Positions 20,460 through 60,088 of a stretch of DNA of 64,000 nucleotides are shown here, piece after piece. The notes below the pieces were generated by a model. The model worked only from the letters and a program-made list of their open reading frames with translations, did no database searches and was not told where the DNA came from. Positions within the stretch are counted from its first letter, which is position 1. Each line of letters opens with the position of its first letter. Origin of the DNA: Alloascoidea hylecoeti (taxonomy: Eukaryota); the NCBI GenBank assembly GCA_001600815.1, contig BCKZ01000006.1, positions 124,001 through 188,000 of the forward strand. The letters are read 5' to 3'. The position numbers and the translations under genes were made by a program.

Positions 20460-23366
20460 ATGTCTTATAGAGAACATGGCTCTGAAAGGGGTGGTCGTGG
20501 GGGTCGCGGTGGCAGCCGTGGTGGCCGAGGAGACCGTGGAGATCGTGGAGGTTATCGTGGAAGGGGTGGTCATGGTGGAGATCGCGGGGGCTACCGTGGA
20601 AGGGGTGGTGACCATGGTGGTAGAGGTGGAGCTCGTGGGGGTCGTGGAGGCCACAGAGGAGGTAGAGGTGGGTTTGGTCAACAACCATTGCCTGTTTATA
20701 ATCTAAAAGCAGAGTTTGAAACTCCCAATATCGCTTCTGTTCCCGATAATACTAAAGTCCTCGCGAAATTGAAACCCGAGTTAACAAAAACTGGGGTTTT
20801 TAGTGATCAAAAACAGATGATTTTGAGACCTGACTATGGTACCATAGGTACAAAAGTAGACGTTGGCACAAATTTCATCTCCTATGATATTTCTGGAATC
20901 AAAATTTTTACTTACACTGTAACTTTCCCAAACGAATTAGCGACAAAAAGAAGAATTAAAACGGAGTTATTGGTTGAAATAATTGATAAAATTGTAACAG
21001 ATCCCTCGCTCAAAAAGCAGGTTGCACATAATAATGGCAATACTATTTACTCCGTTGACAGACCAATTCCTTTGAATGTCACCTCATTCACGTTTGACGC
21101 TGGAAAAGGTAAAGAGCCATGGGTGGTTACAATCAAGAAAGATGTGGATTTGGACATGAATGAATTCGTTAAACACGTAAGATTGAGTTCTGCAAACTCC
21201 TTCAAATTGGATACCACTACTTATACTAATGCTTTAAATGTTATGCTTGGTTATAAAGCATCTCAACACAAGAACATTGTTCCAGTTGGCCGTAACAGAT
21301 ATTTCGTTATCGATAAACCAGAGAAAACGAACGAAATCATGCAAGGTTTATATTTATGTAATGGTTTCTACACTTCTGTTCGTCCTTCCTTTGATAGAGT
21401 CTTAATTAACTCGAATGTTTGTACCGCTATTTTTTATAAAGCTCATAAGTCTGATGGCACCCCAATGAGCCTTGCAGATTTGTTTTTTGATTATCTAGGT
21501 ACAACCAATATTGATGATGTTAATAATGAATTATCTAGTTTCAGACACCAAAAGTTTTTCAAAGGTTTACGTATCAGTAGACCACATTTGAAGAAATCTA
21601 AACCAAAAACAGTCGTTGAAATCTCTAATAAGTCAGCAAAGACTTACACTTTTGAACAAAATGGTAAAAAGGTATCTGTTCAAAATTATTTTAGAGATCA
21701 ATACAAAGTTCAATTGAAGTATCCAGATCTCCATTTGATCGGTCTTGGTGGGTTCAATTTCATGCCTGCAGAATTAGCAACTGTTATCCCAGGTCAGGTA
21801 TTCAAAGGTGATATCACTGATATGAGACGTGTTTTAGATTTTACATGCCGTATTCCTGCTCAAAATGCTGGTCTTATTCAAAAGAAAGGCCTAACTCAAG
21901 TAATGGGATTTGAAGGTGAGAAAAGAATTGGTAATAAGTTAATGGTTGTACCATCTAGAATTTTGCCTGCTCCTGTTGTAAAATATAAAACCTCTGAAAT
22001 TAGATATAGTCCTGGTTCCGGTAAAGCTGAGAATAAAGGTAATTGGAATTTACGTGATGCTAAATTTGTTGAAACTGGAAAGTCAAAAGGTACTCTTGGT
22101 GTTATATTAGTTAAAGATAATCGCACCAGAACTGATGATCTAACCGACGCAGTTAATTGTTTTATTGGTGAATTAAGAAAATCTGGTCCAGTTTTTACTA
22201 AATATGAAAATAAATCTGTTGAGGCATCTTTTAATTTAAAAGATTTGGAAAGAGATCTAACTGGTGCTTTCAAAACTTTGAAGAGTAATCCAAAAGTTAG
22301 TTTTGTCTTAGTTGTTTTAAACAAAGAAGATACCGGAACTTATTCAATAGTTAAAAGGGTTTCAGATTTAATTGTTGGTATTCCATCATCTTGTGTTATT
22401 ATCAATAAGTTTACAAAGAGAAAATATGATTCCTTTGATTTAATGTATATGGCAAACGTTGCGATGAAAGTTAATTTAAAGCTTGGTGGGTCAAATCATA
22501 CATTATCAGAGCAGGATTCAAGGCCTTTGTTTACTGGCACTCTACCTGCATTAATTCTTGGTGCAGATGTTACTCATCCAAGTGGTTTATCTGAAAAGAA
22601 TCCTTCAATTGCTTCTGTTGTAGGTTCAGAAGATAAATATTTCAATAAGTTCCCTGGTGCCATCAGATTACAAGATGGTCGTGTGGAAGTTATTCAAGAA
22701 ATGGATTCATTGGTTATGGAAAGATTAGATCATTTCTATGCTTTGCATAAAGCTTTGCCAAACAAGGTTTACTTTTATAGAGATGGTGTTTCCGAAGGCC
22801 AATTTTCAATTATATTAGAAAACGAAGTACCTAAGGTCCGAAAGGCTTTAGCTGAAGCAGGGAGAAAATACAAGGCTGGGCCTAAATATAGTCCAAAGTT
22901 GACCTTTTTGGTTGTTGTTAAAAGACATCATACAAGATTTTTCCCATTGCAAGAAACTGTTAAGGGTGCACGTGGCCCTGAAGCGGTTAAATCTCATGAT
23001 AATATCATTCCTGGAAGTGCAATTGATCGTGGTATCTGTTCAGTTTATTCTTTTGATTTCTATATTCAATCTCAACAAGCATTGAAAGGTACTGGTATTC
23101 CAGGGCATTATTATGTTTTATTTGATGAGAATGGATTCACATCAGATTCCATTCAAAAATTAACATTTGATCTTTGTTTTACTTTCAGTAGAGCAACCAA
23201 ATCTGTTAAGATTGTTCCCGCTGCTTATTATGCTGATTTATTGTGTGAAAGAGGTCGTAGATATATTCATGGATCTTCAGCTGATCGTAGTCCAGATAAG
23301 AAAGCAAAGGAAATGCTTGGTTTAGGTATTCATAAGGATGTTAAGAATGTCATGTATTATATTTAA
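20460..23366 (+). CDS. AGO1: Argonaute (RNAi slicer), N-PAZ-MID-PIWI with N-terminal RGG box
   Basis: RPDYGTIG N-domain; PAZ (SVQNYFRDQYKVQLKYPDL..PAEL); KVNLKLGGSN; PIWI GADVTH, GRVEVI, YRDGVSEGQF, KRHHTRFF, GTGIPGHY, PAAYYADLLCERGR; 13 RGG triplets in the first ~75 aa. Reb1-like CCGGGTAA at 20321-20328. Confidence 0.97.
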   Translation: MSYREHGSERGGRGGRGGSRGGRGDRGDRGGYRGRGGHGGDRGGYRGRGGDHGGRGGARGGRGGHRGGRGGFGQQPLPVYNLKAEFETPNIASVPDNTKVLAKLKPELTKTGVFSDQKQMILRPDYGTIGTKVDVGTNFISYDISGIKIFTYTVTFPNELATKRRIKTELLVEIIDKIVTDPSLKKQVAHNNGNTIYSVDRPIPLNVTSFTFDAGKGKEPWVVTIKKDVDLDMNEFVKHVRLSSANSFKLDTTTYTNALNVMLGYKASQHKNIVPVGRNRYFVIDKPEKTNEIMQGLYLCNGFYTSVRPSFDRVLINSNVCTAIFYKAHKSDGTPMSLADLFFDYLGTTNIDDVNNELSSFRHQKFFKGLRISRPHLKKSKPKTVVEISNKSAKTYTFEQNGKKVSVQNYFRDQYKVQLKYPDLHLIGLGGFNFMPAELATVIPGQVFKGDITDMRRVLDFTCRIPAQNAGLIQKKGLTQVMGFEGEKRIGNKLMVVPSRILPAPVVKYKTSEIRYSPGSGKAENKGNWNLRDAKFVETGKSKGTLGVILVKDNRTRTDDLTDAVNCFIGELRKSGPVFTKYENKSVEASFNLKDLERDLTGAFKTLKSNPKVSFVLVVLNKEDTGTYSIVKRVSDLIVGIPSSCVIINKFTKRKYDSFDLMYMANVAMKVNLKLGGSNHTLSEQDSRPLFTGTLPALILGADVTHPSGLSEKNPSIASVVGSEDKYFNKFPGAIRLQDGRVEVIQEMDSLVMERLDHFYALHKALPNKVYFYRDGVSEGQFSIILENEVPKVRKALAEAGRKYKAGPKYSPKLTFLVVVKRHHTRFFPLQETVKGARGPEAVKSHDNIIPGSAIDRGICSVYSFDFYIQSQQALKGTGIPGHYYVLFDENGFTSDSIQKLTFDLCFTFSRATKSVKIVPAAYYADLLCERGRRYIHGSSADRSPDKKAKEMLGLGIHKDVKNVMYYI

Positions 23367-26249: not shown

Positions 26250-26327
26250 TCTCGGCCGAGACGATGATCGGCTTGATCAACCAAAGTTAACCCACCAATT
26301 CTTATTTTTGAGTCATCTCGGCCGAGA
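26250..26327. promoter_or_regulatory. PUT1 upstream elements: two TCTCGGCCGAGA palindromes and a Gcn4/AP-1 site
   Basis: TCTCGGCCGAGA at 26250-26261 and 26316-26327; TGAGTCA at 26309-26315 abuts the second copy. Confidence 0.5.
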
Positions 26328-33623: not shown

Positions 33624-33865
33624 CGATTAGCCGAATGGAAAGAAAAAACCCAGTGCTGGCTGTAATAGTTAATAATTGTAATGTATTTGAGTCATCTCGG
33701 GATATAATCAGCGGGAAGCTTTAGTTCCGAGGATATGAGCAGATATTTATTATCAGGCCGATTAGCCGAATAGATTTAACATAACTATAATTTTAATAGA
33801 AAGAAAGAAAGAAAATTGTAATGTACTTGAGTCATCTCCAGATTTAGCCAGTGGGAAGCATTAGT
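33624..33865 (+). repeat. Duplicated promoter module, each copy with a Gcn4-type TGAGTCA site
   Basis: CGATTAGCCGAAT at 33624 and 33759; AATTGTAATGTA(T/C)TTGAGTCATCTC..GAT.TA..CAG.GGGAAGC.TTAGT at ~33674 and ~33814. Confidence 0.75.
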
Positions 33866-34276: not shown

Positions 34277-35443
34277 ATGTTATCCCCACAAGTTATAAAT
34301 TCAAGCTTATTGCCCGTCTTACTACACTCTTCTTCTTCACCAGTTATTTCTCGTTGTGCCTTATTAGCGAGTGCCAATATAGTACGATCTCAAGCTCGTT
34401 TTTTTTCATCAACTCAATTTCATAGAATGTCACTTCCAACTACTCAAACAGGGTTTGTTTTCAATCATAAAACAAGTAAATTAGAAAAGAAAGAAATTCC
34501 AGTACCTGAACCTAAGGAAGGTAATATTCTTTTAAAGATTAAGGCAGCAGGTTTATGTCACTCAGATTTACATGTTTTGGATGCAACATTACCTTATTAT
34601 TCTGATTTTGTATTAGGACATGAAATCGTTGGACATATTGCAAAGTTTGGCCCTGGCGTAGACAAAGAGAATTTCGATACAAACAAATTATACTCAGTTC
34701 ATGGATCAAATCCTTGTGGGCAATGCAATTATTGTAGGATTGGTCAGGATAATTTATGTCAACAATTGACTCGCGCTCCATATGGATTAGGTGAAGATGG
34801 TGGTTATCAACAATATGCCCAATTCAAGGTGAGAAATCTAATTCCAGTTCCTGATGGAATTGATCCTTCAGAAGCAGCAGTTGCAACGGATGCAATTTTA
34901 ACACCATATCATGCAATGAAGGTTGCCGGAGTTAAAGGTTTAACAAGGGTGCTAATTATAGGACTTGGGGGACTTGGCATTAATGGCGTTCAAGTCGCTA
35001 AAGCTTTCGGTGCACATGTTATTTGTACAGATTTAAGACCAGAAGCAAGAGAGAGAGCAAAGGAATTGGGAGCCGATGAAGTTCTAGAAACACTACCTGA
35101 GACTTCACTCAATGTTGATGTTGTTACAGATTTCGTCTCAGCTAAAAGTACTTTTCAATTAGCACAAAAGCATGTTCGTGCTAAAGGTGTTATCGTGCCT
35201 GTTGGACTTCATAGTCCGGTCATTGAGTTTGATTTGAATGATTTAGCATTCAGAGAAGTTAAGATTTTAGGGTCCTTCTGGGGTACATCACAGGATCAAA
35301 TTGAATGTTTTGACCTGATTAAGAAAGGCGTTGTTAGACCAGTTGTCGAAAACGCTAAGTTCGCGGATACTGACAAGCTTTTGGAGGACTTAAGAGCTGG
35401 AAAGTTTAAGGCCAGAGTAGTTGTTCAACCAAACGATGAGTAG
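34277..35443 (+). CDS. Zn-dependent MDR secondary alcohol dehydrogenase / carbonyl reductase with N-terminal presequence-like extension
   Basis: GLCHSDLH, GHE, structural-Zn C-x2-C-x2-C-x7-C, ATDAILTPYHA (Asp third ligand), GLGGLG, GSFWG; resembles the Candida parapsilosis SADH type. The 50-aa leader ends RFFSSTQFHR before a second Met. Confidence 0.9.
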   Translation: MLSPQVINSSLLPVLLHSSSSPVISRCALLASANIVRSQARFFSSTQFHRMSLPTTQTGFVFNHKTSKLEKKEIPVPEPKEGNILLKIKAAGLCHSDLHVLDATLPYYSDFVLGHEIVGHIAKFGPGVDKENFDTNKLYSVHGSNPCGQCNYCRIGQDNLCQQLTRAPYGLGEDGGYQQYAQFKVRNLIPVPDGIDPSEAAVATDAILTPYHAMKVAGVKGLTRVLIIGLGGLGINGVQVAKAFGAHVICTDLRPEARERAKELGADEVLETLPETSLNVDVVTDFVSAKSTFQLAQKHVRAKGVIVPVGLHSPVIEFDLNDLAFREVKILGSFWGTSQDQIECFDLIKKGVVRPVVENAKFADTDKLLEDLRAGKFKARVVVQPNDE

Positions 35444-49400: not shown

Positions 49401-49661
49401 TCTCCTCTTTCAACGGGTTCCGCTGCTTTGTCAGATGTTTCGGAGTCAAATCAATCTTACACTTCTGTTGGCAGTACAACCAGTACGACTGACATACTAA
49501 GTACTATGAATATATCTTCTAAAGATTTTGATGAAAAGAAAATGAATTTAAATCATTCGGAAAGCAGTTTATTTGATGCTTTTCTACATCATGGCCACAA
49601 TGTCAATATTAATGAGAAGAATCATAATATGAAGGAAGCTTCGAAGAGTCATATAAGTTGA
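46428..49661 (+). CDS. Zn(II)2Cys6 transcription factor, Cat8/Sip4/FacB family; join(46428..46450,46505..46577,46639..46662,46725..49661)
   Basis: Three short GT-AG introns reconstitute [59 protein letters not shown]; middle homology region AQRLGLH...RRHLFWIVYSLD..LGAP. Confidence 0.9.
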
Positions 49662-50149
49662 AAGTTGAAGATTTTCTAAATATTATTTTTCTGAATTTAT
49701 GGTTATCACTACATATATTTGATACACATGTTATCTTTCAGCATTTTGCATTTAATTTGTTTTTATCCTACATCTTTCATTTTCCTTTAATTGCTCTTGA
49801 ATTTAGTATAATAATCAGCTAGTACTTTTTATTTTTATTATTGTTATATTTTTACATCTCTGATTTAAAATTTTGTTCTTTGTTAACTTTGCAATTGGAC
49901 TGTCTTTATTTTCCGATTGAGTTTTAATTATAATATGGCTGGAACAATATTGCAATTATTCTCATATTCTTGTTTTTTCTCTTTATTTATTTGATGAATT
50001 TTCAAATAAATTTGAATTATTTTTATATATGTAATCAGCTTTATGTATCACTTGGATTTTGGTGATAAATTATTGGGTATGGATAAATAATAAAAAGAAT
50101 TTTTTTAAAAAGTTGTGTCTTTAAATTTAGCTGTTTAATTTGTAGAATA

Positions 50150-51093
50150 TTACGACAATATCGGTAGCAATCCCAAGCGTGGGCCTACACCGGTACAACC
50201 TGGCCTCTATAATACGCTTTTTTCAGACACCTTCAGTTTAAAATCAGGTTGGGAAATAAAGTGATCGCAATTCCTTGTGATGAACATTTTCGAAGAGATT
50301 CCAAGTGTGCTCATTTGGATTCTAGTCCGGTGAATAAGACAGTCAATCCAACACATCTATCACCTTGTCACTAATTCTTTTGGAAACAATTTCAACATGA
50401 TTCTAGCTTTATGATTCGATATTTTATCTTGCTTGAATATATTATGACACCCTTTATTTGTGTTATTAGTGTTGTAACTTACTTATCCTCAACCACTCTA
50501 TATAGCGAAGTATGATCTCCTTTCCGAATTACAGCCCATAATATAGGACCTACTGACTCAGACATCCTTATATTTTGAGGTTGAAAGACCTGGCCTGACT
50601 ATTACACTGTCGAGCATATACTTTTCTAGTTCGGATCCTTTGACGACCGAACATTCGTCACTGAATACAACACCCCCAAACGTCCTGAGACCACTTCAAT
50701 TCATCTATGTATTTTATATATTTCTGCTCCTTTGGTTTATCTCATTTAGATAAGACGCTTTACACATAGAAAATATCCATATTTATGTTTTCACAGAAGG
50801 TCTTTGATATTCCAATGTTGAATTTGGAACCCAGCTCATCTTCATGGGTGAAGTTCTTACAATCCTCAGAATTTGATTCCCTGTCCTTTTAAAAACTTTT
50901 GTATTCTATTTTGTTCGAGAAGGTGTTACACCAGAAGATTTGTTGATTCCTCATTTTTAACTGTGAACCGCATAGCAGGGTTAATATTAAGCATTCTACC
51001 TATTTCGGCAATTGAGATATATGTTTACTCATGATCAGATTACATCTTTCAATCCCCTTAGCTGGTTGGAAATTACCTAAAATCTCTCTTCAT
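50150..51093 (-). mobile_element. Degenerate Tc1-family (DDxE) transposase relic
   Basis: Minus-strand ISIAEIGRMLNIN (HTH, ~50980-51020), LKWSQDVW..VFSDECS (~50650-50700), IFKQDKISNHKA (~50405-50440), IDVLD*LSYSPD*NPNEHTW (~50301-50360), matching Tc1 FSDES / QDNAPxH / WPSxSPDLNPIExxW. Confidence 0.85.
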
Positions 51094-51697
51094 AGAATGC
51101 TAGAGGTGATTCTATGGTATATTTCAAAGGTTGGAGTTTTTAGGAGGATGTCAGAAAAAAAAAAGTGTAAGTTTAATCGAGACCTGGCTGAAGGTATAGG
51201 CCTAGATATTTAGTAGAAGATAAATTTTGAGTAAAATGGCCATGGATAAGGAAAAGCATCAGTTAATTATAAGGGTCAAATTTGAATAGGTTTTAAGATA
51301 TAACCACGTTATATTATACAATTCTACAATTTAATCACTACTACACTAGCGAATTTTACATATAAGGCTACACTTAATCTCATAGTTCTGATAATCTTTG
51401 TTCAATATTTTTTTTGTGATTTCTTCTGTCCTGTCAGGATTTTTCTAAAACTTGGCACATTGAACTCAGTAGGTCCATTTATGAAACACTGTTTTCATTA
51501 TTCCATGATTGGTTGGAAGCTGCCATATTGATATCGTATGGTGTATATACCATTAGAGAATATTGAAAATGTTTTTCTTAAAACGGGTACCGTAGCGTAG
51601 CGTGAGAATTGAGAAGATCTGTACTACCAAAAAAAGTTCCTAAATCACTGTAACTCAAAAGTTCTACTTTTAAAACAACTACCCGATAGAATTTGAA

Positions 51698-52950
51698 ATG
51701 GCACGTGTACACACAAGGACTATAATGAATGCAAAAGACCATAAGAACAAAACAAGCTGATATGCTCGGATATTTAATATAAGAGACGATAGATGAATAT
51801 GTCGTAATGTGAAAATTTCCAACAAGTTTAGTGTCTCAAAATCGACTTTTCACGACCACTTCCACGGTTAACTATCAAAACAAGACTCCCACCAAATTGA
51901 AGGCTTCCATCCACTCTTGAAGAACAAGAAACAAGATCTCATTTGACCACTTTAAATTCTCTGTAAAAATGGTTGTTGCCGCTATTGTAGAGCGCTTCCG
52001 TGAGCTGGTTTATGATGTTGATTTTCGGAGTCGATGAAAAATTCCGTCTAAAGAATAAACGACCGCTAACAAAACATTATTATTCCGCAAACCACCACAT
52101 ACTCAGTCGTGCTAGTTATTTCAAGACACTATACTTATATATGACGAACCCAAAAAATTTAATGAGCACAGAATTTTAAGCGAGGTTCCAAAATATATTT
52201 GCCAAAGGTATACGTTACTTCGAGTGTCTCTCAAAATTGTAAATCTCTCATATTTGGGACTTTGATGAAACAGGTACACATCTAATGTTTGAGTCTTTGT
52301 TTTATCTGCAGATGCTAGTCAGGAAAGGCAACCAGCTTCGGTGCACTAAAGAAGAGGTTGAAAAAGATCTATGATGAGAAGCCTGTAACAAATCAATCAC
52401 CGCCCTCAAAAAAGGATTCTGTTACAATCTATCAGGATGGAATTATAATGGCTAACCCCTAAGAATATCCTTTCTGTATTTGCAGCGACTAACTAAAATA
52501 TGTCCTTTTGACGATTTCACATAAGTTTGGAAAGATTTATGCGGGTGGAAACGAAGAAGATGAAAGGGAAGAAATAAAGGAAAAATTCATTTGATATGAG
52601 GAATTCGAAATATACCTAGTTTGTAAAACAAATTCTCGAATCATAGTTGGAGAAGCTAAAAAAAGTATGGTATATTTGACGAATTACGCGCCTGAAGAAA
52701 TCACATCAAGGGGACGTTTTATTATCCCATATTTCCATCACGGTGCTCGAAGATCCCTTAAAAGCTATTCGAAATGGAATTCAAACGTCTAAAGAGAGAA
52801 AGCCCCGACTACACATAATCCTGCGGAGATAACAAAGAAAAAGGTGTCTGGATCTAGTGAGCTCACTCAAAAAATCTTACACCACAACAAAAAATACAGA
52901 AAGAGAATAATGAACAGAGATTTTCATAATTATGAGATTACATAGACTTC
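51698..52950 (+). mobile_element. Degenerate pogo/Fot1-type transposase relic
   Basis: ISNKFSVSKSTFHDHFHG*LSKQDSHQ (HTH, ~51815-51895), HIWDFDETG (52249-52275), LSAD, LTPKNILSVFAAT..ICPFD (~52452-52512); stops, frameshifts and an internal deletion. Boundaries approximate. Confidence 0.78.
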
Positions 52951-54918
52951 AGTGATAGCATTTGTAATAATATGTCTTTGATGTTGGTTTGGTAATTCGT
53001 GGTTGCAATAGAATAATGTTGGGGTATTCGAGTGAGGCTATTCGTTTGTGTTCTAGGTATTTGACGGTATAGGCAGTGGGAATGTTAATACAATTAATAA
53101 TTGGTACCACAATTAGTTCTTCCAGAAACAGATCTTCTAGATATAAGTTACACTTATAACTATGGATTAGTTGGAAACAAATTTGTACAGTGTGCATTTG
53201 ACATTCAAAATCATGTAGAATATCGTTAACAACTTAAAATTTTTAAAGCTATAGTTATGATTGATTAGAATTGTCAAACAGAATGTATCCAAGAATATAA
53301 AACTAGTTTGTGCTAGAATACGCGTAAACTTAAATGCTTTTAGAAAAAGAATCTTATAGCTAGCGCTTGTTAATTACATTGTATACACCATTGTTGAACA
53401 AGATTCCAACAAATTCGTATTGACCATTTATTTTCCTTATTTAGAGCTGGAAAAATGGTTTCATTCCAATAAGACATGGGAATTTTGAAAAGTCTTAACC
53501 CATAATTATGCTCGAGTATTGATGACGGAGTGGTGTGTTTCATTTTACTTCTTTGTGGATTTAATTAATTGTTTCACCAATATATGGAAATCGATATAGT
53601 TATATTATAGAAGCCTTAATTATAATCAACTGCACTATTCTTAACATTTCTTATATACATCGCTTTATTTTACGTGTGCATAGCTATAGGTATGTGATGT
53701 GATGAAGAATTGCATAACTAACATTTTATAACATTATACGATATCAACTTATCAACTTACTTTCTACTATTGGCCCTATAGCGTAACGTTGGGTATTAAT
53801 TTTTGAAACTAAAACATCTAAGAAAATGATCAATAACGTTAACTATTTCTGTATAAATAAATTTCCGCCATGGATATATGTGTTATATACGTGCAATTAA
53901 TAATATAAGAATTATAACTGCCTTGTGATTGCAAATTTATATGTGGTACAATTGAAGAAGTGACTGGTAATTATTGCAACTCTCCTATTACACTTAATTA
54001 TTTGCAATTGTTACAAGATTATCATAAATGGCATATTAAAAATAGCTTACATGTTATAGCCTTAGCGGCTAGCCTCAAAATTATGATATGAGGATTCAGG
54101 AACATGATACATTTAACATTAATATTAAGTAATGAAGTAAGTTTAAATTTATTACATGATACAAAATTATTCGCTGACATATTGTTTCACCAATCAAGCT
54201 TCTTCTGTCAATTGACATCGCAATTTAAAATGACCGAACAACCATATGCATTGCAATTGCATTTGATAATGTTAACTCATCTGCAAATGAAATGAAAGGG
54301 TTTTTTTGTAAGGCTTATAGATATATAGCCTTCGATACCCGCGCGCGGTTGGCCGTGGTTATTTTCTTATCATTTAGTCCATAATTGATCACAAGATAAA
54401 AAGTGGCTTTAAGTTTCAGCTGTCTGATTGCAATTGGTCAAGGATTGTTTTATAATCAGGGGCCCAGGATCACAACAATCAAATTTTAAGTATATGATTA
54501 AGAGATATAATATGTGTATCAAATACTATCAATATATTGATAATAAGCGTATAAGTTATAAGAGAATATTAATACTTATAATTAATTCACTATCGCGGTG
54601 GGATTATCGGGACTCGTTAACCGCGATCTGTAGCACTAGCTAGCTATAGTTTGGTATGAGCATTGAGCAACAGCTCAAAGCCAAAATGAGTCATCTGAAG
54701 GAGTCAAGTTGATAAGGAATTTCATCAGCCGCTTTAAAGATTCCATTCTGGTCTGGAATGACCCGGAGATGGTGATTTTCGGAGTGAAAAAAGCGGTTTG
54801 AAGTTTGAGTCATCTCTAAAAACTTCTTATCAAATATAATATTGGATTAGGCTGCATATATAAATTTAAAGATTCCTTACATAACCAACCTCCACGCCCT
54901 TTTTCTTCCTCACACACA

Positions 54919-55656
54919 ATGCCATCTACAATACTGGAAAACTTGTATGTCCATTTACCCACTTTGGTCCCTCCACAAATCGTTCATTTTCTGACTATGT
55001 TGTATTATTTAGCATACGGACCTCTCAAATTCCTAATGTCATTGGAGGAATTGCAATAGATAGGACAACGGGCTTAAGCATAGGAGGTATGTGATTTTTT
55101 AAGTATTTCCATTACATCATCTCGGCTCAATTCACTTCGAGGATCTTTCAATAAATACTAATTGTTTATATTATCTATTTCAGCATTTGGCAAAGCACAA
55201 AATGAAGATGCCCCCTTTCTGAAGCAATCTTCTTCAAAAGCGTGTGACCCTCAAACTGGTTCGGGAGCCGTCGAGTATCATCAAATGTAAGTTGGTGATT
55301 CTTCTTTCTACAATATCTTTTTCTTTAACTTGTTATCAGAACTATAATGCATATACTATATTTGATTATTATAAAAAAACACGGTCAAACAATAAAAATG
55401 AGTTCCATCGTGTTTAATTCATTTTAAAGTATAGAAAGTTTCTCCATAAATCTTTTACTTTAATTAAACATCATTCTCTCATAAAATGATCTCACTATTA
55501 ATTGGATTAGACTTGGTTGTCTCGATAACATGTTTTAAAAATACTACCCTTTCGGATTATTTTTATAATGACGTAATAACAAGTATTTATTATTTTAGGA
55601 GAGTTCTATTGCAAAATACAGAACAGGCATTATTAGGTGTGTATACTTCAGGATAA
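54919..55656 (+). CDS. Small roadblock-fold EGO/Ragulator subunit, Ego2/LAMTOR5-like; join(54919..54944,55013..55086,55184..55286,55599..55656), 86 aa
   Basis: Three GT-AG introns (GTATGT, GTATGT, GTAAGT) give the in-frame product MPSTILENFIRTSQIPNVIGGIAIDRTTGLSIGAFGKAQNEDAPFLKQSSSKACDPQTGSGAVEYHQMRVLLQNTEQALLGVYTSG. Pattern resembles LAMTOR5 (P..VG...D..GL.LG..G) and Ego2 (..LAVYTS). Confidence 0.75.
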
Positions 55657-57308
55657 TATTGACGACATGAAATTATGAATTGAATCCAACTAAATCAAAA
55701 ATTACCAATGTTTACAACTATAACTCTCAAAATCTAAAAGAATTAAACTCAAGGAAGTAAGAAAACAAAACAAAACTGGTACTACTAGTGTACAGAAGTG
55801 TTAAAAATAAATCATTGCATGTTTTTTATTTGCTATTTTCTATTTCTATTTTTATTTTTATTTTTATTTTTATTATAATTCTTATTTATTTATATTTTAA
55901 AATAATAGTATAATCCTCGCGAATTCCGATTGTTTTTCAATATAAGATATAACCCGCATAATCATATAACTTATAATTATAAGATATAACCCTTTTCCTA
56001 CAAAAATAATCAAATAAACACATAATTATACAATCACAAACATATGATAATCGAATAATACAAAAAAAGTTGATAATTTTGATAGGGTGTGAAATATTAA
56101 CAATTTATATTTATAAATTTAAATATAAATTAAAAAATTGGGAAATATACTCAAACATATAATATAATTATAATAAAGTTATGCTTATAGTATTAATATC
56201 CCGACCAATATTGTTCACAAAAAAAATCGATAATAAGGAGATAGGAACTTGCTAGCCAGCTCTACTTAAAAATTGGATATGATCATGATATCGATTCATC
56301 TATAATATATAATTATAGAACTGGCTTAGAGGTATGATTGAATGTCTTCATAATACTAATGTAGATAATTAGTTATAATACATTAATTATAACTTTGCAA
56401 TTGTGATCCCCATTCATTCATTCATTCACTTAATGATTGAGATCATTACATATATCGTATTTCCTGGAAGGTATTCCCCTAAACTCCGCCGGAACCCTCC
56501 TTCTTGCAGCCAGTTTCACGAGCTTTCCGGAAGAGACCAGGCATTCCGAAGGAAGGTTAGTTTTAGTCGTTAAGGGAAGGTCAAAAATTAGTAATTAGAA
56601 TTGGCCAATATATTTAATCCTCATGCGTCTAATATTTTGCTCAAAATAAGGTCATCACGAGGCCAATTATTTAGTTCAAAAGGTGGCTCAAATTAAGTGG
56701 AAACCTTGTGATATTGTTGAAATTCCTCTTAAATAGCTTTTAAAACCTATAAATGACTATGGGATGTACTCTATACTACCAAAAATCATATACCAGTGTG
56801 GCACTAACCTAGTCAGTTTCAGAACACCATTGTCACTAGCGCAGTGGTTGAACGCCAAATCGCCAAATGAGCCATCAGAAATCAAGGTAATGTAATATTA
56901 ATTAACCAAAAAGTGTTATATGATAATTATAGCGGTACTTTTTAAATCCTATTCAGGGACTTTCAAATTCAAAGGTTCCTATTTCATTTGTACTTCTTTA
57001 ATATATATTAACCTATTAAGACGGACAACAATTCTTGATGCACATGATAGAATGATTATCAAGCGTCGGGTAACAGCTATAAGTATAGGTTTTAACCCTA
57101 ATGATAACTTAAAACATATGCGTAAATATCAGAATGGTTAAATTGAAGCACACACCATGAAAGCTTGAGATCTTTGGTAGGAGACAATTGATTTAGCGAT
57201 ATAAGCAAAGAGTATGTATAAATTAAGGTGATGTCAAACTTTCATGTGGAGACATCTCAGGTGAATTAATGAATGACTTTATTAACCAGTTTTTTTTTTA
57301 AGATTACA

Positions 57309-57813
57309 ATGTAAGCATTACTATTAATTCAAATATAAGCGACGTGATGATAAAGGTGCAAGAAATATCACAATCAATTTTCAACCACTATTCGACAATG
57401 TTTGAATCAATTTGGATCAATTTAAACAGCAGAAATGTACTAACCATCAAATTTCAAAAATAGGACTAAAAGAACTAAGAAGGTTGGAATTACAGGAAAG
57501 TACGGTGTCAGATACGGTTCATCCCTCCGTCGTCAGTGTAAGAAATTGGAAATTCAACAACATTCCAGATATACTTGTCCATTCTGTGGTAAAAAGACCG
57601 TTCAAAGAGTTGCTACAGGTATCTGGAACTGCAAAGGTTGTAACAGACAACTAGCTGGTGGTGCATATGCTTTTGCGTAAGTTCTTTATTATTTGTTTAC
57701 TAGACTTTCATTATTTGATTCACTTCACTAACAAGTTATATAATTATAGTACACCTGCTGCTCTTACCGCTAGATCAACAATCAGACGTCTAAGAGACCT
57801 TGCTGAAGCATAA
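57309..57813 (+). CDS. RPL43: 60S ribosomal protein eL43 (L37a); join(57309..57310,57464..57676,57750..57813), 92 aa
   Basis: Start codon split AT|G by intron 1; [64 protein letters not shown]. Confidence 0.97.
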
Positions 57814-59078
57814 TTGGATTAAAAAGAAAACTATCATAGATACGGCTTTAATGAAATCTCATGTATATGTATGTGATGATCATACTTCCCTTTCAACAAA
57901 TTTTGTTTTGCAATTGTAAATTAATGGGTGCACAAATATAATATCTAATAAATAAAAAAGTAGTGTATGCTTATTGCTTCACTATTTTGCATACATGTGG
58001 TATAAGCTTTTAGAAGTAGTTTGGAATCTATTCTTTGACTACATAGCTCAAAAACAATATATTCGAGACCGGACTTCTCTTGAGAACATTTTGACATTCT
58101 TTCCCCACAAATATTTCATGTTTATTTAGTGTATATAAAAAAGACAGTCAGTCTCATTTTTGAGAGTAAATAAATGTATGGGTGTTTACAGGCTCAACTC
58201 CGGGTGAAAACATCCATAACTTCCGGAAAATAATCTTGTAGACTTGCTGCTATAATTTTGAATTGTAATTAGAAGTTTCTTTTATGGAGTTTAGTATATT
58301 TGGAAAAGAGAATTCGGTCTACCTAGTTTTATCTTTAACTTGATATTTTTCTACAGAACTGAGTTTATTTTTAACTTGATTAGAATCTTGGATTCCCATA
58401 CGTCTTAATCATCACATTCCGCGCTTAATGTTATCCTTACTTGTAAATAATACAGCAGCGAGTAATTACACTTATATGATTATCACATATTATTACAAGG
58501 CTTGGTGTTTAGTTGAAGCCGAATTCATTAACCCCCCTTTATACCTTTCTAAGATCCAAAATAAAAGCTATCTTCATTAGAAAACTTTTGTTACTAGTTT
58601 TTCAATATTAGTATTTTTTTATTTTCATTTTGCAGTTTTGATTGATGTTTAAGCTTCCGGAAGGGAAGAGTGCACCACTACATAAATTATGTGGGATGGC
58701 AGCCTGCAACAGCAGTATAAATTACTCGCACACTGTACTTAATTATAATATTATGTGTCACATATGATATTATATATTACTTATATTAATTACTATAGTA
58801 ATGAGTCCTAATATTATATAATGATACTTGGTTATAATTGAGTCTTGTTTATCTGTTTCCAGTTTAGGAGTTTTAATTGTTGTTTCAAGTTCTATAAATG
58901 CTAAAAAATCCTTTTTTTTCTCGTTTTATTATAATTAAAATTTGTAATCGTTGCAGGACCTTCATAATCAAGTATAATTTTTCGGTTTATCATCATAGAA
59001 ACGCAAAGTCCTGTTAAATATAATTTGAGCCTTTCTACTACACCTCACAGAACAACTTTCAAGATACTACAAAAACTA

Positions 59079-60088
59079 ATGAACGATATCAAAAAAGTAG
59101 GTAAAAATATAATATATATTAAATCAAATAACCTCTTTCTAACTTGAAATTTTTAATTGAAAAATAGGACTCATCGCCTATATTTAAATCACCAAAGCTT
59201 GAAAAAAAAGCTCTTGAGAAGGCATTTCACCAGAGACTCACTAGATCTGTTCCTAGAACTTCAAATCAAATACCCTTGATTGTGAACTGTAATGCAAAAT
59301 CGAATTCTCATCAATTATTGGACTCTTCTCCATTATCACGTTCAAGGAAACGACATAGCCATAGAAATATCAATGATGAACCTTTAGAAAGTATAAACGA
59401 TAGATTGAATAAACTAGAAAATCATATAATATCTATTCAAAAACACCAAGAAGAACAAGATGAATTACTTAGAGTTTTGGCCAAAGAACTTATAAGTAAT
59501 AATGAATCTAATACTTATTTAAATATTCAAGCTACAAGCAAGACAAACACTGAGACTGATGTTGTTACTGGTACCAGTCCTATAGCTAGTATTACTAGTA
59601 ATAGTAATAAGGCGAAGGTGAAGGTGAACAGGAAATTAAAATACCACCAAAATAATGCTTGTACTCCATCACCAATTAAAAACATAAACATGGGTACCCC
59701 GGCTACAGATGATACTCCTCCTCCAGTGCCTCCACACTCCAGCGTCCCATCACGTTCTAAGTATATTCTTGAAGAAGCTGATTCAAACCAATCACCACAA
59801 GATGTTCATAAAACAATAGCTCTTTTAAATAAAATTGATAATGAGCCAACCATTTCTGTAATGAAAGATTCATTTAAAGTTATCAAAGAACGTTTAATTT
59901 CATTAAGAGAGGAAAGGAAATTTTATCAAAATCAAGCATTAATGAATAATGAAGTATTTATGAACAGATTAGTTGAAGTTAATAATATAAAAAGAAATCT
60001 GAAACTTAAACATACGAGAGATAGTCCAATTCCTAGTAATTGTAACAGTCCTCGTTATAAAAAGCTTAGATTTCTTTTAGATAATTGA
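59079..60088 (+). CDS. Hypothetical coiled-coil, S/T-P-rich protein; probable join(59079..59096,59168..60088)
   Basis: Long ORF without an early ATG; upstream MNDIKK exon with a GTAGGT..CTAAC..TAG intron is in phase; two heptad-like segments and a C-terminal SPRYKKLR. Confidence 0.6.

Follow-up and report, generated by a model that had tools for sequence, protein, structure and literature searches.

LAMTOR5, LAMTOR4 and Ego4 are described as roadblock proteins lacking helix alpha3, and Ego2 lacks helix alpha1 as well (PMC3747258, PMC5680233 and PMC6722880, each in part). The gap in the incomplete roadblock is filled by a helix of LAMTOR1 or Ego1 (PMC5742854, in part). Within the available text of the structural report on the yeast complex, Ego2 makes no direct contact with the Gtr proteins in the crystal, yet it is required for scaffold assembly (PMC6760929), and loss of Ego2 partly reduces vacuolar Gtr1 and TORC1 activation (PMC4713139). 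Ego4 is not an Ego subunit (PMC4713139). The human proteins HBXIP and C7orf59 were tied to Ycr075w-a and Ynr034w-a by means of HHpred in 2013 (PMC3747258, in part), Ego2 sits at the LAMTOR5/HBXIP position in structures (PMC5742854, PMC5680233 and PMC6760929, each in part), and reviews tabulate Ego2, Lam4 and LAMTOR4/5 together (PMC7828246 and PMC4860963, each in part). Lam4 of S. pombe was discovered by purification and shows, according to the part of the report consulted, no apparent sequence homology (PMC5752196). In a survey of 1154 yeast proteomes Ego2 was recorded in 165 (PMC11836306, in part), and the accessible part of the supplement assigns Ego2 to eight of 17 yeast families, Ltor5 to four, both to one and neither to six. 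This near-complementarity is read here as one orthogroup recognized by two models, together with missed genes; under one orthogroup and two models, a yeast protein carrying both feature sets is to be expected. The earlier note had presented the locus described below as a possible bridge between LAMTOR5 and Ego2. A protein of that composition is indeed expected in yeasts, but the bridge itself is not new, since the equivalence of the two proteins is already established (PMC3747258, PMC5742854, PMC5680233 and PMC6760929, each in part).

The locus was analysed within a 64-kb window, i.e. the whole stretch of DNA under consideration. No ATG open reading frame of at least 100 aa is present within positions 49661-59690, in agreement with the gap in the open reading frame list from which the earlier note had started. 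Reassembly from the coordinates reproduced four predicted exons and three GT-AG introns that give an in-frame path from ATG to TAA encoding 86 aa, and the TATA-like box and both TGAGTCA motifs reported upstream were present at their positions (Table 1). The motif TATATAAA is frequent in the window, with 13 copies on the forward strand and 14 on the reverse strand. Intron 1 (68 nt) belongs to the 50-100 nt length class that is enriched in this genome, and the GC content of the exons (0.36-0.46) compares with 0.24-0.37 in the introns. A DNA search and a protein search both indicated that the locus is single copy in its own genome. A five-exon model combining both last exons was rejected, the rival exon being devoid of a consensus donor before its own stop codon. 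An automatic harvest of introns returned nine, mostly unconvincing, and was set aside. A search of 49700-54500 for a divergent gene that could use the same TGAGTCA sites disclosed no convincing frame. This region of about 5 kb, with a GC content of about 0.35 and neither a convincing coding frame nor an Rfam match, is possibly decayed sequence or long regulatory DNA; the Rfam search extended over 49700-60000 and gave no match.

Table 1. Predicted features of the candidate gene and its flanking region (positions in the window).
Feature	Position	Strand	Remarks
Gcn4/AP-1-type site 1, TGAGTCA	54687..54693	.	232 nt 5' of ATG; putative function
Gcn4/AP-1-type site 2, TGAGTCA	54806..54812	.	113 nt 5' of ATG; putative function
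TATA-like box TATATAAA	54857..54864	+	62 nt 5' of ATG
Exon 1	54919..54944	+	8 codons plus 2 nt; A at -3 of the ATG; helix alpha1 predicted to begin here
Intron 1	54945..55012	+	68 nt; GTATGT donor, branch-like CTGAC at 54991-54995, TAG acceptor
Exon 2	55013..55086	+	74 nt; roadblock-like beta1-beta2 hairpin motif
Intron 2	55087..55183	+	97 nt; GTATGT donor, branch-like TACTAAT (CTAAT at 55158-55162), CAG acceptor
Exon 3	55184..55286	+	103 nt, GC content 46%; helix alpha2 and strand beta3 predicted; codon score about +6.8
Intron 3 (86-aa model)	55287..55598	+	312 nt; GTAAGT donor, weak ATGAC at 55568 and ATAAC at 55576, TAG acceptor
Rival last exon	55340..55427	+	preceded by 53-nt intron with TTAAC at 55325 and CAG acceptor at 55339; product 96 aa
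Exon 4	55599..55656	+	TAA stop at 55654-55656; predicted strands beta4-beta5; codon score +3.9
AATAAA, possible 3'-end signal	55806..55811	+	150 nt 3' of stop; weak in AT-rich DNA

Chance seldom produces in-frame splice chains of this kind, which makes a real gene likely. Chains of three introns encoding at least 80 aa occurred at two loci in 2,000,120 simulated bases (about one per Mb of simulated strand), and none was detected in the window (39,565 non-coding bases) or in 188,034 unmasked bases from 40 other stretches of the same genome. Three same-study metatranscriptomes contained a fraction of 0.00 of the sequence words, a result that is neutral as to expression. The branch rule of this test was relaxed until the locus passed; a stricter rule yields no chain at the locus and thus rejects it, so the comparison is post hoc. 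The four exons together reached a codon score of 7.2, as compared with -9.4 +/- 8.2 in non-coding draws, of which 3.1% of 5000 scored as high; an equally low value was seen in 25% of 77 true coding chunks, and exon 2 by itself was slightly negative. The description of the gene as hidden was fair, because the set of 5.8 billion proteins apparently contains no protein of 75-2000 aa with exon 3, while Ego3 of the same genome has a 99%-identical record.

The family assignment was approached by means of interface residues numbered in the available parts of PMC5742854, PMC6722880 and PMC6760929, with five families compared against shuffles; this test is post hoc, as the N-terminal match had been noticed by eye beforehand. 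The seven N-terminal residues of LAMTOR5 that contact LAMTOR1 align at offset 0 with two identical and three conservative residues (LAMTOR5:candidate pairs T4:T4, L5:I5, H8:N8, T12:T12, I18:V18, V21:G21 and C23:A23), and 60 of 5000 shuffles were as good. The five C-terminal residues, placed at offset -4, were equalled by 1927 of 5000 shuffles and are not significant alone. When all 15 LAMTOR5 residues of the LAMTOR1-binding face (alpha1, beta1 and beta3-5) were used, an equally good fit was reached in 33 of 3000 shuffles and in 8 of 571 windows of real proteins, the best result of the five families; the corresponding numbers of shuffles out of 3000 were 166 for LAMTOR2 (14 of 571 windows), 246 for LAMTOR4 and 391 for LAMTOR3. 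The Ego1-contacting residues of Ego2 (I32, I35, L38, Q50, V51, Q52 and V58) remained at chance level (1767 of 3000), with the low power of a seven-residue set. As five families were tried and the N-terminal match had been seen in advance, the LAMTOR5 register is suggestive only. Provided that it is right, the 86-aa frame ends 2-4 residues past the positions aligned to LAMTOR5 V86/K88, and a chain of less than about 100 aa lacking the C-terminal helix alpha3 would fall into group II of the roadblock proteins. The 17 residues that precede the first predicted strand align with residues of LAMTOR5 alpha1 and may likewise form a helix. Accordingly, the LAMTOR5-like character that the earlier note had ascribed to the N-terminal half finds suggestive support in the seven residues at offset 0, whereas the proposed Ego2-like C-terminus found no counterpart in the tested Ego2 residues, which span positions 32-58 and stop short of the extreme C-terminus. 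As for overall likeness, we take the N-terminal half to resemble LAMTOR5 and the last 20 residues to resemble Ego2/Lam4.

Profiles built from archaeal proteins gave borderline scores for the candidate, about as weak as those of the genome's own, true roadblock domains. A profile of 34 proteins chosen by the LAMTOR5 model scored the 86-aa product at -0.4 bits (403 of 2000 shuffles as good), one of 27 Robl_LC7 proteins at 1.8 bits (52 of 2000) and a roadblock profile of 45 proteins at 1.3 bits (54 of 1000). The aligned part was each time the first beta-hairpin in exon 2 only. As positive controls for the 45-protein profile, Ego3 reached 4.8 bits (7 of 1000 shuffles), the C-terminal part of Gtr1 3.6 bits (12 of 1000) and that of Gtr2 -0.4 bits (215 of 1000). 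The proposal of a LAMTOR5/Ego2-type protein has modest support from the LAMTOR5 register, at about 1% by shuffle, and from the borderline roadblock profiles; HH-align lent none, the 86-aa product being matched or beaten by 16-42 of 60 shuffles.

Further searches were carried out with single exons. These yielded no accepted match in Pfam, no candidate for PF16672 (LAMTOR5, cut-off 27 bits) or PF11503 (Ego2, cut-off 25 bits), and no match among PDB sequences or 1.84 billion representative proteins. In the set of 5.8 billion proteins none of three and none of nine candidates held, the best value in the ESM Atlas was 0.82 for bacterial hypothetical proteins with nothing found in a second search, and in metagenome contigs none of 597 pattern matches was confirmed and none was exact. 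Used as a control, Ego3 of the same genome found one match among 341 candidates and retrieved no Ego3 structure from the PDB; since this true subunit is nearly blank too, the blank exon searches carry little power. A match to EAR (Pfam, E 0.05) was below the family cut-off and was dismissed. Three archaeal stretches picked by PF11503 share the short exon 2 motif (7.8 bits, 0 of 2000 shuffles) but do not look roadblock-like. They were rejected as true homologues, and the result of the pooled profile that included these stretches (6.6 bits, 0 of 2000 shuffles) was disregarded. Likewise discarded as reference sequences were the archaeal proteins picked by the LAMTOR5 model, which proved to be dynein-type roadblocks and retrieved no LAMTOR5 from the PDB. 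Eukaryotic LAMTOR5 was looked for in contaminated prokaryote assemblies and appeared in one of 19 genomes, an archaeon, under the cut-off.

Two observations were made in passing during these surveys. In a sample of 201 genomes from an Asgard phylum, 84 contain proteins above the cut-off of the Pfam LAMTOR5 model, and what these proteins match best are dynein roadblock chains; the closeness of the archaeal matches to such chains indicates that the model cross-reacts with generic roadblocks. Moreover, bacterial assemblies include contigs, mostly short, with near-eukaryotic Arf1 sequences that share 46-92% identity with yeast Arf1 and are likely to represent contamination.

A profile search of the genome identified two intron-split Rag GTPase genes (Gtr1_RagA PF04670, 203 and 198 bits) and one SLM4/Ego3 gene (53 bits on Pfam SLM4). 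The genome of the candidate hence encodes both Rag GTPases and a subunit of the Ego3/LAMTOR2 type, as expected for an EGO/Ragulator complex. Exon-by-exon reading of the genome gave no match to PF16672, PF11503, PF15454, PF03259 or PF08923, from which absence does not follow; it likewise disclosed no LAMTOR2/3-type or Robl_LC7 gene by profile and no second LAMTOR5 or Ego2 candidate. For Ego1, which would be the obligatory partner and whose lack speaks against the assignment, the exon-by-exon search with PF15454 was a weak one and found nothing, and the N-terminal pattern matched 18 times versus five times in controls, with a convincing Ego1-like frame at none of the 18 matches. The Ego3/SLM4 gene (L010:1405-2040 in G000:C3, with Ego3 at G000:C3:371235-371756) differs from the database protein in the length of an Asn-Gly repeat (211 versus 213 aa), and an ATG inside the gene, at 1504, agrees with where the Pfam model begins.

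When compared with the described systems, the candidate is close in size to human LAMTOR5/HBXIP (PF16672), a roadblock domain of 91 aa as against 86 aa, and this size fits a roadblock without alpha3. The human system differs in its other subunits, as the genome analysed here contains an Ego3-type subunit instead of LAMTOR2/3-type proteins, as judged by profile. The likeness to S. cerevisiae Ego2 (Ycr075w-a, PF11503) lies in the proposed place within an Ego1-Ego2-Ego3 scaffold, beside Ego3, Gtr1 and Gtr2. Ego2 lacks helix alpha1 (PMC3747258, PMC5680233 and PMC6760929, each in part), while in the candidate 17 residues precede the first predicted strand; its agreement with the Ego2 interface residues is at chance level. 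In view of the apparent alpha1 and the unmatched Ego2 residues, the candidate should not be filed as a strict Ego2. S. pombe Lam4 (SPAC23D3.16), a small subunit for which LAMTOR5 or Ego2 is given as the equivalent (PMC11836306 and PMC7828246, each in part), was likened to the candidate by description only; its partners are the Lam2-Lam3 pair, whereas the proposed partner of the candidate is Ego3. S. cerevisiae Ego4 (Ynr034w-a) and human LAMTOR4/C7orf59 are incomplete roadblocks with alpha1 (PMC6722880 and PMC3747258, each in part), as proposed for the candidate, but the LAMTOR4 register is weaker than that of LAMTOR5 (246 versus 33 of 3000).

On the whole, the locus fairly probably is a single-copy, intron-split gene for an incomplete-roadblock subunit of the EGO/Ragulator type, i.e. 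the counterpart of LAMTOR5, Lam4 and Ego2; such a subunit is the best reading of the sequence and a plausible one, although weakly tested. The protein would retain enough residues at its N-terminus to form helix alpha1, like LAMTOR5 and Ego4 and unlike Ego2, and would follow the LAMTOR5 layout in that 17 residues lead to the first predicted strand and the chain ends just after the last one. It could then bind the C-terminal helix of Ego1 and brace Ego1-Ego3, so that Gtr1-Gtr2 would be held at the vacuole, as transferred from the described pathway (PMC6760929, PMC5742854 and PMC4713139, in part). Both this kind of protein and the equivalence of Ego2 and LAMTOR5 are already known, and the candidate is most likely an unannotated member of that kind.

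The motif TGA(C/G)TCA occurs 14 times in the 64-kb window and 33 times in 400 kb elsewhere. At 14 copies per 64 kb, the Poisson probability of two copies within 300 bp upstream is about 0.002 for a motif that was chosen post hoc. Genome-wide, eight same-strand pairs of TGA(C/G)TCA spaced 20-50 bases apart were counted, as compared with one for the reversed control; the pair of the candidate itself, with a spacing of 119, lies outside this set. Six of the eight pairs adjoin frames for an aconitase-family protein, an AlaDh_PNT-domain enzyme, a tetrahydrofolate synthase, an SNO glutaminase, a class I tRNA synthetase and an MFS transporter, and the remaining two are located inside unrelated open reading frames; the tetrahydrofolate synthase case may be intragenic. 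We take the first five of these frames to resemble members of the Gcn4 regulon, namely LYS4, LYS1, ADE3, SNO1 and the tRNA-synthetase genes. Because the pairs adjoin frames of this kind, the motif appears to be functional in this genome, and the Gcn4-type sites look credible, although bZIP factors besides Gcn4 may bind TGAGTCA. The putative link to amino-acid starvation through Gcn4, as put forward in the earlier note, is thereby supported indirectly. A regulon comprising the whole complex is disfavoured, as no site is present at Gtr2 or Ego3 and the only one at Gtr1 lies downstream. Titles and abstract openings in the literature contained no report on Gcn4 control of an EGO subunit. It is rather doubtful that a single LAMTOR5/Lam4/Ego2 orthologue, working in a mixed scaffold as an alpha1-retaining protein with an Ego3-type partner, is under Gcn4 control alone among the scaffold genes examined. 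If this were true, amino-acid starvation would feed back through transcription on how the TORC1 platform is assembled, possibly with fine adjustment by the two alternative last exons, and annotation gaps caused by tiny exons would partly explain why the subunit has been reported as lost in yeast families. Within the window, a second TGAGTCA pair is present at 33688 and 33828, upstream of the open reading frame at 34277, presumably of an alcohol-dehydrogenase-like protein, and a single TGAGTCA at 26309 lies 295 nt upstream of the open reading frame 26014 on the reverse strand, which we assume to be proline-oxidase-like.

The gene model itself has to be weighed against two alternatives. The absence of any functional gene, with a splice chain arisen by chance or a gene decayed within a gene-poor stretch of 10 kb, would account for the modest codon signal with its 3.1% tail, the negative exon 2 and the need to loosen the splice rules in order to admit the locus. 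It would have to be reconciled with a rate of about one chain per Mb of simulated strand, with the lack of any such chain in 228 kb of real non-coding DNA and with the joint occurrence of an intact frame, a GC contrast between exons and introns, and promoter motifs, and is regarded as very unlikely; the four-exon locus, as far as can be judged from its sequence, is very probably a real gene. A different end of the gene, with intron 3 closing at 55339 after 53 nt and yielding 96 aa, or the use of both last exons, would leave gene and role unchanged and overlaps with the favoured explanation rather than excluding it. The short intron falls into the enriched 50-100 nt class, unlike the 312-nt intron of the 86-aa model, and donor-acceptor spacings of 250-350 nt showed no excess (8.8% versus 9.5% in controls). 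Among branch-like motifs counted after 351 strong donors and at 1834 control positions, CTAAC was enriched 3.5-fold, CTAAT 1.9-fold, TTAAC 1.4-fold, ATGAC 1.2-fold, CTGAC 1.0-fold (four counts) and ATAAC 0.8-fold, which ranks the TTAAC of the rival above the ATAAC of the long intron. On splice signals the acceptor at 55339 is therefore preferred. The 96-aa form has in addition a clear pyrimidine tract before its acceptor, a higher register score on LAMTOR5 (26 versus 20) and a higher roadblock profile score (2.8 versus 1.3 bits). On the other hand, the rival exon (23% GC) has non-coding-like codon usage: its score of -8.9 is reached by 82% of 3000 non-coding draws and is as low in only 0.7% of 1799 coding stretches, whereas the +3.9 of exon 4 is reached by 2.9% of 3000 non-coding draws and lies at the coding median (54% of 2816 coding stretches as low). 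The coding signal thus favours exon 4. The hydrophobic run of the rival exon would be typical of AT-rich DNA and would inflate matches to beta-strand residues. The 86-aa product is accordingly judged likely and the 96-aa product unlikely, and the same low probability applies to the broader alternative including joint use of both last exons.

With a real gene accepted, its family can still be questioned in two ways. The product may be a different small roadblock, such as the equivalent of LAMTOR4/C7orf59, a paralogue of the Ego4 type that does not belong to the core complex, or a roadblock light chain of dynein type, given that the profile matches span the generic hairpin only, that the LAMTOR4 residues ranked second among the plausible families (246 of 3000) and that Ltor4 is recorded for three yeast families (PMC11836306 supplement, in part). 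The LAMTOR4 register, however, is not significant and overruns the C-terminus, and a dynein-type protein is unlikely because the archaeal profile matches dynein roadblock chains at 45-81 bits, while a profile from the same set gives the candidate -0.4 bits; altogether this group of explanations seems improbable. Similarly improbable is a genuine small gene whose function is unrelated, for instance one for a Gcn4-induced starvation protein, whose roadblock likeness would be coincidental. Evidence for the gene is stronger than evidence for the family, no homologue was found in the protein sets searched, and TGA(C/G)TCA is missing from the Gtr2 and Ego3 loci and occurs once, downstream, at Gtr1. 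The blank homologue searches are nevertheless expected, as the true Ego3 has only one 99%-identical record and no relevant PDB match, and the agreement of the LAMTOR5 register at offset 0, the hairpin motif and the size argues against coincidence.

If the assignment to the LAMTOR5/Ego2/Lam4 type is right, a missing subunit of the TORC1 scaffold is filled in this yeast, and surveys based on proteomes undercount the subunit. A yeast member retaining alpha1 would also aid the sequence alignment of LAMTOR5 with Ego2, and a Gcn4-driven scaffold subunit would join two amino-acid sensing routes.

Among the other open reading frames of the window are some that we take to be Argonaute-, Pma1-, Hog1- and Put1-like, as in an AT-rich yeast. 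The intact 968-aa open reading frame at 20460-23366 on the forward strand has an RGG-rich N-terminus; it is presumably the Argonaute-like one and suggests that this yeast retains RNAi. On the same strand, the region 57444-57680 contains a frame for the ribosomal protein eL43/L37ae (PF01780, 111 bits) with a GTATGT donor at 57212 and no ATG open reading frame of at least 100 aa, probably a second intron-split small gene located 1.8 kb downstream of the candidate. A forward open frame of 306 codons at 59168-60088 reaches far upstream of the ATG open reading frame at 59690, which again suggests an intron-split gene.
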